Positions 7,564 to 16,951 of a stretch of 21,887 bases of DNA are shown piece after piece; positions within the stretch are counted from its first letter, which is position 1, and each line of letters begins with the position of its first letter. The translations under genes were made by a program, and so were the position numbers. The stretch comes from Macrostomum lignano (Eukaryota), in contig NIVC01005199.1 of the NCBI GenBank assembly GCA_002269645.1, forward strand, positions 1 to 21,887, in the 5' to 3' direction. The notes under the pieces are model-generated. The model was given only the letters and a program-made list of their open reading frames with translations, was not told the origin of the DNA and made no database searches.

Positions 7564-7978
7564 ATGCCGATTATTTTCGAGAAAGACGTGACAAATACTA
7601 TGACAAAGAGGAACTTAATCTCATTAAACGCGGATCTGGACTTTTCCCTGCAGGCCACTATCCAAGAAAAGAACGCTCTGGGAACGGCTTGCCGATTTGA
7701 TCGCTCAGGGGGCCAAGATTTTTAAGGTCATTGGAGAGAACAAAGAGAACATCAAGAACGTTGCCGAAGCGGCTGGCAGTGTAGCCACAGCAGCCAAAAA
7801 GATAAAGGATACTGTAACACCTAAACAAGAGATTCAGCCTCCACTGGCCCCGCTGGCTCCATTGGCCCCAAATCCAGACAGTGTGGACCCTGCAGTCTAT
7901 GAGAAGATGAGGCTAGCATTAAAAAAGGAAGTGGTTTCAAATTTGACTAAAGGGTACTTTCCGAGGGTACAAGACTAG
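7564..7978 (+). CDS. Small virion-type protein with amphipathic helix (adenovirus protein VI / cupiennin-like); 2 frameshifts as assembled
   Basis: TAAAA-ATG at 7564. Reconstructed MP(D)YFRERRDKYYDKEELNLIKRGSGLFPAGHYPRKERSGNGL(A)DLIAQGAKIFKVIGENKENIKNVAEAAGSVATAAKKIKD, followed by a Pro-rich PLAPLAPLAP segment. Confidence 0.55.
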
Positions 7979-8123
7979 TCCCGAAATGACACATCTAAGT
8001 CCCAAAATGACACATCTAAGTCCCGAAATGACACATCTAAGTCCCGAAATGACACAATTAAGTACCAAAATGACACATCTAAGTCCCAAAATGACACATC
8101 TAAGTCCCGAAATGACACATCTA
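7977..8123. repeat. Seven tandem 21-bp units AGTCCC(G/A)AAATGACACATCTA
   Basis: Units start at 7977 and every 21 nt to 8103; near-perfect copies. Confidence 0.97.
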
Positions 8124-8162
8124 AATTATTTATTATTTAAATTTTTTTTCATCATAGAAAAA

Positions 8163-8963
8163 ATGGACTTTTCAAACGACTTCAATCCTCACTGGACGCG
8201 TAATCAGATTAAGTTTTCTCATCACGAGTCAATTCCGAGTCACTTCAGATGCATTGTTGTTGGTTCATCAGGTTCAGGTAAAACATTCAGAGTCTTTAAC
8301 ATGCTTCTTAGACCTGGCTTTATCGACTATGACACTCTGCACATCTACTCTCCCACACTGTATCAAGATGAGTATAAAATGTTGATTTCTGGATTGCAAA
8401 ACAAACTGCACAAAGAGGACATTATTGCATGTTTTAATAACCAAATGAGCCTTCCCAGTAACCCTGAAATTGTAGCTGCTGAATATGCAAAGCACCTCAA
8501 AGACAATGAAAAATGGCAGAACATTAAAGTGTTCACCTATGGAGATCCACAGGCTGATCCAAAGACCAAACTTCTACCCCAACCAGATGAGCTAGAAAAG
8601 GGGAGAAAGCATTTGATCGTCTTTGATGATTGTATGACAGGCCCACAGAAGCAGATAGAAAACTATTTTACAAGAGGGCGACATAACAATTGCAATGTAA
8701 TTTACATTGCACAGAATTGGTTCGAGCTCCCGAACAAAACAATTCGTGGGAACTGCAATCTGATTCTCCTGTTTCCAACCATTCCACAGGACAGGCTAAA
8801 AAGATTTTACAATGAGGTCATTGCGCCTGCCTATTTCATAAATCCAACAAAAAACTCAAGCAGAAAGATTTCACAAGAGGAATTCGTTAATCTTTGCTAT
8901 GACAAGTGGAATCAGCCTTACCAGTTTGTGATTATCAGCAAAGAAAAAAGAACTGTAATTTAA
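8163..8963 (+). CDS. A32/FtsK-HerA-family genome packaging ATPase (uninterrupted)
   Basis: Walker A GSSGSGKT, Walker B LIVFDD, and the family motifs YFTRGRHNNCNVIYIAQ and IRGNCN. The start is taken at AGAAAAA-ATG (8163), although the ORF is open from 7986. Confidence 0.95.
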   Translation: MDFSNDFNPHWTRNQIKFSHHESIPSHFRCIVVGSSGSGKTFRVFNMLLRPGFIDYDTLHIYSPTLYQDEYKMLISGLQNKLHKEDIIACFNNQMSLPSNPEIVAAEYAKHLKDNEKWQNIKVFTYGDPQADPKTKLLPQPDELEKGRKHLIVFDDCMTGPQKQIENYFTRGRHNNCNVIYIAQNWFELPNKTIRGNCNLILLFPTIPQDRLKRFYNEVIAPAYFINPTKNSSRKISQEEFVNLCYDKWNQPYQFVIISKEKRTVI

Positions 8964-8979
8964 AATTTGCTATTAAAAG

Positions 8980-9764
8980 ATGTCGATAAACTTTGCAGGT
9001 GAATCATTTCTGGCAACAGCACTCTCACAACTTCCATTCCTTGACGAAGATCCCAGAGATCAAACTGAATAAAAACAGACTGAAAGCCCTAGAGCGCTCC
9101 ATGCACCAGTTGCAAATAAACATGGAAGATCTCAGGCTTAAAGTAGCTAGGCAGAAGTTTGAAAGTGATAAGCTTTATGTGCCGTTGTTAAACGCAACTA
9201 ATGAACTAAGGTCAGAAATAACTTCGATAGTCTCGCTAATCAACGGCTTGAGATCATCAGTTAATCTTCTGGGAAATTCCACTGATAGACGGATGCGTAT
9301 TCTCGAAGGAGGAGTTTTCACAAACACAGCTAAAGTAAATAATTTAGAAGAGTTCATGAACCAGTCAACAGCGTTGCATGATAGAATTAAAGAAAACGTC
9401 GCAACCAACACAGTAAAGTCAATATTTAGAAGAGTTCATGACTCAGTCAACATCGTTGCATGATCGAATCAAAGAAAGACTTGAAGCATTAAAGAGAAAG
9501 GATGTATCACACAGTAGCTATCTAAACGGAATGTATAGCTCTTGGGGTAAAATAATAAGGAGGCTTGATCGTCTGGAGAGAACACTCAATCTTCGTGATA
9601 TTGCTATTGATGAAGCAGAATCTGCTGCTCGTCCGGTCATGTCTACAGATCGAGTAGAAGGAGCTCTGGACCCCGCCGGAGTAATCCGGCACGCTCTCAA
9701 ACGTCAGCCGCCCAGCCGCTGCCTGCTGGACTCGCGATCCTCCGGCGTCACGAGAGCCGCCTAG
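8980..9764 (+). CDS. Orphan coiled-coil protein (~260 aa reconstructed) with an internal 28-codon duplication
   Basis: ATG at 8980 (MSINFAGESFLATALSQLPFLDEDPRDQ) shifts into ORF 8993-9463 and then ORF 9438-9764. Heptad-like NRLKALERSMHQLQINMEDLRLKV. KVNNLEEFMNQSTALHDRIKE occurs twice. Confidence 0.55.
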
Positions 9765-9855
9765 ACAACCGGCGGTGCAGATGGAATTATCAAAAAGAAA
9801 ACAGATCTTTCAACCGGATAGTTTTATAATTTTTTTATTTTTTCTAGAGAAAAAA

Positions 9856-14877: not shown

Positions 14878-14989
14878 TTTTTTCTCTAAAATAAAAAAAA
14901 TTTTGAGGGTGACCACCCTGATAGAAAAGTTGAACTGTTTCTACATCCTATAAGTAGCGTAGGTTTATGAAGCTGGATAAAGTGGGGTT

Positions 14990-15449
14990 TTAAACCATCA
15001 CATCACATCGCATTATTGTAAACCCAGCATTGTGCAGTGTCATGATGCTTTGACAATGTCAGACTTGCTTACAGAATTTTCATGCTCACAATCATCACAT
15101 CATCTCAGGGCAGCCCTCTCCTGCCTTAATTGTTATACCTTTGTCTCTTGCAATCTTTTGCAATTCAGCTGGTGGGCTCTATCATTCCAGCTTTAACAGC
15201 AGTTGCTACACCTCCAGCTACACCACCTGCGGCACTTACAGCGCCTGCAATGATTGGAATAAGAGCTGCTAATGGTAGGATTCCTCCTGACTTTTCATCT
15301 GTGATGCTGTGTCTTTGCTCATTACACTGAACTATTTGCTGCACGGGATCGATTTTTACTTTGGCACCTTTAATTGATATAAGACCTGGTTTCTTTGATT
15401 CAATGATTTTATTGAGTTTATTGATGGTTCTGGTTTCAATCTTTGTCAT
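14990..15449 (-). CDS. Adenovirus pX(mu)-like core protein precursor; the 3' half is reconstructed across frameshifts
   Basis: KSGGILPLAALIPIIAGAVSAAGGVAGGVATAVKAG closely parallels adenovirus pX (RGGILPLLIPLIAAAIGAVPGIASV). Downstream pieces read ELQKIARDKGITIKAGEG and DIVKA(I)MTLHNAGFTI. The end is uncertain. Confidence 0.6.
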
Positions 15450-15465
15450 TTTTTATTTTAATATT

Positions 15466-16451
15466 TTAATTAATTTCTGTGTCAGCTGGTATCACTAGGA
15501 GTTCAGCTCTAGTGAATGACCGCGTGGGGGATTTAGGGTTAAAGGCCTGAGATAAAAAGTAATAGTCACCAGAGTCGGAGGTAAAATGTCTGTCTATTTT
15601 ATGTACATCAAGGCTGAAGTATGGATCTGTAGCTCTTCTTTTGTGTCTTTCTCTAGCTCTCCAGGTAGATATAAAAAGCGTAGAAACTCAGAGTTTGTCA
15701 GTATGTATGGTGATTCAACTCCTGGAAGCTTAGGGTAGTTCGAGGTGTCTGTTCTATGAGATGACTTAAGTTCGACAGTGTCTTGTTTAATTGCATGGGA
15801 CGGTTTCAATCCAGTCATACGTGTGACTTCATTGTTCAGTTGCTCTATAACAGTGGGGAGCCGGTCTGTCCACTTGGTATAGTATGGCCACTTTTTAGTT
15901 TCAGCTCTCAGCTGTCTGCTTAGTGAATAGCCTCTTGGCTAGAGTTAGATTGAATCTCTCAACGTACGCTTGGTCTCTGTGCAAGTTTGTTCTGCCATAG
16001 CGAATCTCTGTGTCATGCTTATGTAGAAGTGATTTCACTGCACCCATGAATTCTTTACCCGGGTCGTCATAAAGGTTTCAGGGTAGCTAAGGGGTGAGTT
16101 TTTATAAATATCTTGGAGGCGGCTGCAACTGCTTCTGACTTCTTCGTCTTAGCGGGCTCGCTTCCTTATATCTGGAGCAACGTCTGTAATTGTGAGAGCA
16201 TACTTGTAGCCTGAGTCATTGGGGAGAAACAAAGATCTGCTTGGTGCGCTCATTAGGTTTATAAATACTGAAATGGGGCCTTTCAAATTTTACTGGTGGG
16301 AAATAGACTTGAAAGACTGCTGCTTAGAGAGCCACTTTTCTACTTTAGCTTTTGGTTCCTTACTTAGTTCTGCGAGTTTGGTGACTGCATTTTTTCCTAC
16401 AAAGAATCCTTTGTCGCTGTAGTAGAGTTTTTTAAGTTTCTGATCTGTCAT
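15466..16451 (-). CDS. int: Retroviral-type (DDE) integrase; multiple frameshifts, not resolved in the ORF track
   Basis: Manual translation gives MTDQKLKKLYYSDKGF, HQADL(L)FLPNDSGYKYALTITDVA (D1), DPGKEFMG (D2), QAYVERFNLTLAKRLF (E), LNNEVTRMTGLKP, FLYLPGELE..KRRATDPYFS and RSFTRAELLVIP, the Polinton integrase pattern. Confidence 0.93.
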
Positions 16452-16481
16452 TTTTTAAAAAGAAAATTTTAAAATAAAATA

Positions 16482-16951
16482 ATGCAACGCTCTGGTGGTA
16501 AGTTAGATTCACATGGACTGATAGAAAAGCTTCCTCATCCAAACAAAGGCTGGACACTTCCCGGCTATAAATATTGCGGGCCTTTGAATCCACTTGAAAT
16601 ACAGTTAGATACAAACATAATCCAAATCCTGGGCATGAGCCTGTGAACGAGCTAGACTCTGTCTGCATGTGGCACGATGTTAAATATAGAGATTTTCCTG
16701 AGGAGAAGAATCGCTGGGACAAAGAAATGCTTAAGAGACTAGACAATATAGGGGCTTCAAGCGGATTTCGTGAGTCGATTGCTCGGAAGCTAGTTAAAGC
16801 TGTTATTTTTAGTAAGGCAAAGTTGGGGTTGGGGTTGAAGGCGAGGGCGGGTGCACAGGGAGAGAGGGCTGGTGCACGAGGAGAGAGGGCGGAGGCTCAG
16901 GAGCGGGGTTTATTTTGTGCGCTCCTAACAAACAAATGGGAAGACTGCTGA
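16482..16951 (+). CDS. Parvovirus VP1u-type phospholipase A2 (PLA2X); one frameshift
   Basis: MQRSGGKLD...GWTLPGYKYCGPLNPL (Ca-binding loop YxGPxN), then EPVNELDSVCMWHDVKY (catalytic HD..Y), D.EML and KAKLGLG. Confidence 0.9.

Follow-up and report, generated by a model that had tools for sequence, protein, structure and literature searches.

A conserved set of putative protease cleavage sites was identified in a 21,887-nucleotide stretch of Macrostomum lignano DNA (contig NIVC01005199.1, assembly GCA_002269645.1; hereafter the window). Within the window lies a single Polinton/adintovirus-type element, roughly 16 kb long and bounded by inverted repeats, with most of its genes broken by frame breaks. 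Three of its small proteins, termed VI-like, pX-like and PLA2, carry glycine motifs of the GG|x and Gx|G types recognized by adenain, the adenovirus protease (AVP), with lysine or arginine at the fourth position before the predicted cut (P4). The clan-CE protease of Polintons probably matures internal particle proteins in the manner of adenain, with K/R preferred at P4 in most lineages and a non-basic P4 in one. The motif set is a real, conserved and testable variant of the adenain maturation code, and it is family-wide, not local.

Cleavage-type motifs in the small proteins

All six motifs described in an earlier note on this DNA were recovered by translation at their positions and strands: KRGS|G and RSGN|G in the VI-like protein, KSGG|I and KAGE|G in the pX-like protein, and RSGG|K and KLGL|G in PLA2 (Table 1). 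A seventh, KKGS|G, was not predicted and is kept in the homologues P0060, P0063 and P0076. The pattern K/R-x-G-(G-x|x-G) was counted with the pieces of these proteins treated separately (361 aa for all three); they contain nine GG/GxG sites, seven with K/R at P4 and two inside the hydrophobic pX helix. Seven K/R-P4 sites compare with 0.95 expected, and 0 of 20000 shuffles reached seven, a value inflated by the pattern having been drawn from six of the seven counted sites; unbiased tests come from the seventh site and from the relatives. Irrespective of P4, GG/GxG sites were only marginally enriched (9 vs 5.5, P 0.067). Among the seven sites, K/R occupy P4 in seven, P3 in two, P5 in none and P6 in two, and the hydrophobic P4 consensus (M/I/L) occurs at 0/7 of these border sites, K/R standing there instead. 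PolB, integrase, ATPase and protease together (1987 aa) have eight GG/GxG sites, two with K/R at P4 (0.73 expected, P 0.17). The expectations of the earlier note regarding enrichment and conservation were borne out, as the motifs are approximately tenfold denser in the small virion-type proteins compared with PolB, integrase, ATPase and protease, they sit at domain borders, and intact relatives carry them in frame.

The pX-like site and its adenovirus counterpart

At the KSGG|I place, K/R-x-G-G|I was found in 12/12 close pX-like homologues. The second GxG of this protein is kept in 8/12, with K/R at P4 in six and Asn in two; KAGE|G had been read from a reconstructed frame, and P0051-P0054 carry the site in frame with the pX domain. 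A profile of 17 pX-like proteins matched the adenovirus pX chain 9lr9_E (E 2.3e-4); a single pX-like sequence searched against the PDB matched zero chains. The same alignment places KSGG|I opposite LRGG|F, residues 47-51 of adenovirus pX. A review (PMC7998265) gives residues 1-31, 32-50 and 51-79 as the products of pMu cleavage by AVP, which places one cut between 50 and 51. As judged from the aligned sequences, the pX site is positionally homologous to this described adenain cut, and the element's protease very likely cuts there. The GG site followed by a hydrophobic C-terminal peptide, a trait of adenovirus protein X (PF05829), is present; an Arg-rich mu peptide between two sites was not found, the window pX-like protein having no second site upstream.

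Predicted structure of the protease

The window protease matched Pfam Peptidase_C5 below the cut-off (E 0.0038), and a protease profile matched adenain (E 2e-7) and also pS273R of African swine fever virus. The predicted structure of homologue P0001 (predicted local distance difference test 90.5), which is 69% identical to the first piece of the window protease, returned adenain as its first match (1nln, template modelling score 0.75). The catalytic set of HW (His-Trp), D74 (acidic residue), Q104 (oxyanion Gln) and C111 (Cys) is conserved in the adenain fold. By alignment, the conserved D26 lies opposite adenain R28, the conserved D44 opposite A46, and N4 opposite E5 (P0001 numbering); these residues are candidates for an S4 pocket accepting a basic P4, but are largely shared with the non-basic lineage. 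Two positions mark the lineages: position 24 is Met in 21/21 basic-lineage proteases vs 2/7 others, and position 101 is Glu in 6/7 non-basic and acidic in 2/21 basic proteases.

The activating peptide of adenovirus, pVIc, is bound by adenain Cys104 (PMC4246237). Because the Polinton protease lacks the segment holding Cys104, pVIc-type activation probably differs in the Polinton enzyme; the C-terminal tail of the VI-like protein is five residues long and Cys-free.

The VI-like amphipathic protein

KRGS|G and RSGN|G share one frame, upstream of the frame break that precedes the amphipathic helix. Motifs and helix lie in a single chain in the near-identical natural proteins P0061/P0062 and in the homologues P0060/P0063; a representative search with the VI-like protein yielded these four proteins, i.e. 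two near-identical copies and two independent homologues. Both independent homologues (P0060 and P0063) have K/R at P4 in all three sites, while P3 and P1 vary. The hydrophobic moment of the 18 residues after the second site lies at the 98th percentile of PolB/ATPase 18-mers, and an amphipathic segment directly follows GxG in 8/8 proteins tested (89th-100th percentile).

Homology to adenovirus pVI was rejected: the homologues and their profile had zero matches to pVI in Pfam or the PDB, and Atlas hits were unnamed. The name survives as an analogy only, for a protein with the build of pVI. The VI-like profile also did not match the pX profile. The tail after the last GxG, GFK[FY]D (window 7936-7950), has a Gly-hydrophobic-basic start and takes the position of adenovirus pVIc; the VI-like C-termini of loci L002, L004 and L141 (GLKIV, GLRLAP and GMKWA) start in the same way. 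These short tails are possible cofactor peptides.

PLA2 and its fusions

The PLA2 domain, which is divided between two frames, has RSGG|K at one end and KLGL|G at the other. Of the two ends proposed to be trimmed, the C-terminal one has its site in 5/5 homologues, and the N-terminal site is absent from 7/7 closest homologues (P0043-46 and cluster mates P0065-67). RSGG|K is the weakest site because these proteins start leaderless. P0047/P0068 carry QYGG|K at this place, and across loci the PLA2 leader either ends in GG/GxG or is lacking, with a Met start at the same position (nine rows), a pattern consistent with a removable leader. The C-terminal K-x-K-hydrophobic-G-hydrophobic-G is kept, K/R included, in the basic and the non-basic protease lineage alike, and could in part be a feature of the PLA2 fold.

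PLA2 and integrase share one stop-free frame in 10/32 PLA2 rows, and no description of such fusions was found in the accessible parts of the literature searched for them. The ten junctions contain K/R-hydrophobic-G-x|G in seven cases, a GxG seven residues later in two, and neither in one. PLA2 is fused to pX in 5/32 rows. In the non-basic lineage (L118:2967-4357, L141:8534-9963 and L164:3414-4190) a Lys-rich tract ends PLA2 shortly after the site, and integrase lies downstream in a different frame, overlapping PLA2 in L118; a programmed frameshift yielding a PLA2-integrase fusion is possible in these loci. In L059 (9836-10846) protease and PLA2 occupy one frame with MSGG|S between them.

P4 residues across Polinton lineages

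Among 232 loci fetched, a pX domain was present in 59 rows, one of them the window, and the pX site was seen in 51 of these, with K/R at P4 in 36, His in two and a non-basic residue in 13 (nine distinct contigs). A basic P4 is therefore no peculiarity of this element, since most related Polintons have it. The claim that this protease keeps both patterns and prefers K/R at P4 is retained in so far as K/R are enriched; the trait is common to most sampled Polintons, and is a preference, not a rule, with N, Q, H, S, A, T, V and I also present at P4. Seven non-basic rows form one starred clade in the protease tree (96/83), with L087 and L059 apart. A rebuilt tree of 29 rows (18 of 47 dropped as redundant, partial or long) required 1-2 changes, with clade support of 86/44, and did not reject a single clade (approximately unbiased test, p-AU 0.41). 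With 1-2 changes on the tree, co-evolution of protease and sites was not established.

Sites were counted in 53 selected loci under a <60% identity filter, with L059 and L006 left out and five loci in which no site was detected classed by relatedness; the P values are optimistic, as sites within one locus and related loci are non-independent. The basic lineages had 2.91 sites/100 aa in small proteins vs 0.26 in non-structural proteins, with K/R at P4 in 34/90 and 0/23 sites, respectively (P 1.8e-4). Site density in the non-basic group was similarly divided (3.11 vs 0.39), and its small-protein sites had K/R at P4 in 12/85 and M/L/I/V in 32/85. After exclusion of the site that defines the classes, of Gly pairs within the helix and of the PLA2 loop, K/R remained at P4 in 31/69 basic-lineage vs 13/81 non-basic sites (P 1.4e-4). 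Furthermore, the PZ-type protein tracks lineage (K/R at P4 in 8/9 basic vs 1/12 non-basic), and the homologue of its window site has K/R at P4 in 7/7 basic-lineage proteins showing the site. Capsid proteins do not track the code, as K/R at P4 were found in 0/14 sites of the major capsid protein (MCP) and 0/5 of penton.

P0001 had no matches among viral contigs or among phage records, and P0056 had none among viral contigs. A scan of prokaryote genomes yielded three uninformative loci, and the majority of the viral-contig matches were distant ones lacking any pX, PLA2 or VI-like match.

Proposed maturation and alternative explanations

In the proposed mechanism, a packaged protease would act on exposed linkers that have Gly at P2, cutting behind GG or inside Gx|G, favouring Lys/Arg at P4 and tolerating His, Asn, Gln and Ser, one lineage having moved to a non-basic P4. 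These cuts would set free the hydrophobic pX peptide and the amphipathic helix, each with a new N-terminus, release the short C-terminal tail of the VI-like protein, delimit the PLA2 domain, and part PLA2 from integrase or pX where these are fused. The pX peptide, amphipathic helix and PLA2 could then serve as an entry module. Most of the seven sites are likely cut, and we lean, with some reserve, towards K/R at P4 reflecting a true preference of the enzyme.

Several observations weigh against this proposal. Both non-structural K/R-P4 matches in the window lie in PolB (KRGG, 12400-12414, and the C-terminal RSGT|G, 11065-11079), the PZ-type site of the window has Ser at P4, the junction site was lost in L096, and the closest PLA2 homologues are leaderless. 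In a column comparison of 21 basic and 7 non-basic proteases, no acidic residue was confined to the lineages with a basic P4 (D26 acidic in 20/21 vs 6/7, D44 in 18/21 vs 4/7), and the co-variation of P4 with protease lineage rests on one or two events in the tree. In the 69 non-defining basic-lineage sites, K/R were also found at P6 (22), P5 (21) and P3 (18), compared with 31 at P4; the P4 excess is significant vs P3 (P 0.028) and not vs P6 (P 0.24).

The column comparison and the counts at P6, P5 and P3 speak for an alternative that is rather unlikely but deserves weight, namely that GG|x and Gx|G are cut with little selectivity at P4, the frequent K/R there reflecting the basic character of linkers that serve as DNA-binding or nuclear-import tracts. 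The variable P4, the acceptance of N/Q by adenain and a mavirus motif given with no P4 rule would also fit low selectivity. It accounts poorly for the pX site, where K/R in basic lineages are confined to P4 (11/13, vs three each at P3, P5 and P6, a partly circular count) and in the non-basic lineage are shifted to P5 in 6/7, or for the window sites with their K/R at P4 and none at P5. Moreover, the proteins of the non-basic lineage are equally basic overall (K/R fraction 0.153 vs 0.171 in the basic lineages), yet their K/R at P4 are far rarer. That the glycines are flexible or structural elements (linkers, the end of a PLA2 helix), or that host enzymes cut there instead of the element's protease, is improbable. 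The PLA2 C-terminal motif kept in both lineages, a window GG/GxG count barely exceeding composition, and Gly pairs inside the hydrophobic helix are in keeping with a structural role; the fact that the pX site has an adenain site as its homologue, the co-occurring adenain-fold protease and the tenfold small-protein enrichment in both lineages are not. Furin-type enzymes require Arg at P1, which the sites lack. An origin by chance, or through the choice of frames in a broken copy, would draw on the many frame breaks, a pattern defined after the motifs were seen, and 39 matches to a similar pattern over all six window frames; it is very improbable, and is already largely refuted by intact natural homologues with the same sites in frame, by the unpredicted seventh site and by the frequency of the pX site among pX-domain rows.

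A bolder form of the adenain-style proposal is a charge-reversed adenain code, in which a true K/R-P4 protease matures at least four proteins (pX-like, amphipathic, PLA2 and PZ-type) and splits PLA2-integrase in the particle, delivering lipase and integrase together, one lineage having re-tuned the enzyme and all its substrates to a non-basic P4. We regard this form as tentative, and somewhat less probable than its opposite. If true, it would make substrates predictable from any Polinton genome.

It is assumed that Polintons form virions and that an adenain-like protease matures them. The conserved, lineage-switching site code, also without the bolder form, names four or five predicted substrates with exact bonds. 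It also offers a peptide assay for these enzymes, a family for which the accessible literature found gives no measured specificity, and suggests that integrase could be packaged as a cleavable PLA2 fusion.

Gene map and state of the copy

The element encodes PolB, integrase (recognized from translation only), ATPase, a double jelly-roll capsid protein, penton and cysteine protease between long terminal inverted repeats starting AG, consistent with the Polinton/Maverick group. The protein at 6331..7560 is called PZ-type here. The type of element suggests an animal host. No 6-bp target-site duplication was found at the element ends, where the flanks were compared and differ, which may reflect recombination between copies, or the assembly. 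The VI-like stretch is present in 20 public runs from nine studies of one organism, and contigs of four public runs span all 30 bins of 7400-17000. Because these contigs depart from the window at 97 listed indel places (and at 186 substitution places), many frame breaks may belong to this copy alone or stem from its assembly. The family is multi-copy. One motif-located change, synonymous, was found among the 40 of 186 substitution places listed, and in-frame stops in the window are scarce relative to frame breaks.

The PolB C-terminus, RSGT|GD (11065-11079), fits the code two residues from its end. Tandem repeats include a 21-bp satellite outside the element (84 copies, 960-2730), which yields long spurious open reading frames, a 21-bp unit repeated seven times between the VI-like gene and the ATPase (7977-8124), and 84-bp units within both terminal inverted repeats (3482-3699 and 19228-19444).

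Table 1. Predicted cleavage sites and genes of the window, with one-frame PLA2-integrase loci in other Polintons.
Feature	Position	Strand	Remarks
KRGS|G, VI-like	7626..7640	+	KQGA|G and KKGS|G in P0060, P0063
RSGN|G, VI-like	7674..7688	+	Immediately upstream of amphipathic helix; RSGE|G, RTGN|G in P0060, P0063
KKGS|G, VI-like C-terminus	7921..7935	+	Seventh site, overlooked in earlier note; KSGS|G, RKGE|G, KKGS|G in P0060, P0063, P0076
KSGG|I, pX-like	15279..15293	-	Upstream of hydrophobic peptide; best-supported site
KAGE|G, pX-like	15113..15127	-	Beyond frame break
RSGG|K, PLA2	16488..16502	+	Six-residue leader precedes; weakest site
KLGL|G, end of PLA2 domain	16820..16834	+	
STGK|G, PZ-type	7366-7380	+	GxG upstream of C-terminal domain; P4 uncertain, frame break close upstream
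Left terminal inverted repeat	3444..4125	+	Starts AGTAG; 92% identity over 695 nt vs right arm
Minor capsid protein (penton), two frames	4161..4995	-	Weak tblastn to penton position of L087, L123, E 3e-4 to 7e-4
Major capsid protein, two frames	5021..6143	-	Polinton loci matched by tblastn, best E 5e-8; K/R-P4 site count 0
PZ-type conserved Polinton protein, several frames	6331..7560	+	C-terminal block resembles ORFs of L001, L002, L123 (read by eye)
VI-like small protein, three frames	7581..7947	+	Leader, two sites, amphipathic helix, C-terminal site, five-residue tail; homologues P0060, P0063
A32-type packaging ATPase	8163..8963	+	Pfam Pox_A32 E 2.9e-6
Adenain-like cysteine protease	10574..10971	-	Two frames: His/Asp part in one, Gln/Cys part in other; 42 homologues
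Protein-primed PolB, at least six frames	11062..14877	-	Pfam DNA_pol_B_2; tblastn E to 1e-82
pX-like protein, two frames	15095..15449	-	Pfam Adeno_PX E 2.5e-7, above cut-off; 12 homologues
Integrase, at least four frames	15597..16451	-	Recognized from translation and gene order; Pfam blank for three pieces scanned
Parvovirus-type PLA2, two frames	16482..16951	+	Ca-binding loop (YCGP) and HD dyad of PF08398 both present; Phospholip_A2_4 in Pfam, E 1.5e-6 and 5e-4
Right terminal inverted repeat	18798..19486	-	Starts AGTAG; pairs with left arm
PLA2-integrase in one frame, other loci	L123:3951-5141, L089:4224-5402, L001:3564-4643		Also L093, L090, L096, L082, L149, L143, L081

Comparison with known systems

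Adintoviruses and Polintons (Starrett et al. 2021, PMC8502044) share PolB, integrase, ATPase, hexon, penton, adenain and terminal inverted repeats with the present element. Membrane-active proteins with pX-like domains (PLA2X, GasderminX, Cupiennin) are described from adintoviruses (PMC8502044; 'Macc' proteins, bioRxiv 10.1101/2024.03.25.586562), in which PLA2, pX-like domains and an amphipathic protein are regarded as membrane-active core proteins; in the window PLA2 and pX are separate genes. The accessible text of these two papers gives no cleavage sites or P4 rule, and the accessible portion of the PMC8502044 supplement has no mention of cleavage. The literature consulted also included bioRxiv 10.1101/2025.02.07.637071, 10.64898/2026.10.13.758929, PMC3671162, PMC11161782, PMC5803895 and PMC11311956; across its accessible parts, no mapped Polinton protease sites, named substrates or basic-P4 rule were found.

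Maturation of membrane-active core proteins by adenain has already been proposed for adinto- and adomaviruses. In adomaviruses (LO6/LO8, bioRxiv 10.1101/341131) a core protein carries adenain motifs, LO6 clusters with pX or cupiennin, and LO6 is found in virions in lower-mass forms and appears cleaved; the adomavirus motifs have a hydrophobic P4, (MIL)XGXG and L(LR)GG, unlike the K/R seen here. The mavirus protease MVP (PMC6048507) is a clan CE virion protease for which cutting at GG|X and GX|G was shown both in vitro and within particles, and its motif is given with no P4 rule. Its substrate is the MCP C-terminus, whereas the MCP of the present element has no K/R-P4 site.

A close parallel is adenovirus itself, in which adenain (MEROPS C5, clan CE; substrates pX/Mu, pVI and pVII) has the same protease fold and the same His/acid/Gln/Cys set. 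The Polinton protease is shorter (130-140 aa), lacking the Cys104 segment and about 70 C-terminal residues of AVP, and the tail that would be released is five residues with no Cys, compared with the 11-residue pVIc. PLA2 is not an adenovirus substrate, and P4 in adenovirus is M/I/L, with N/Q tolerated, vs mostly K/R here. Nevertheless, the GG|x and Gx|G patterns are the same, pVI likewise has an amphipathic helix after its N-terminal site and a short tail after its C-terminal site, and a homologous pX peptide follows the site in both systems, a positional homology that links Polinton maturation to adenovirus pX processing.

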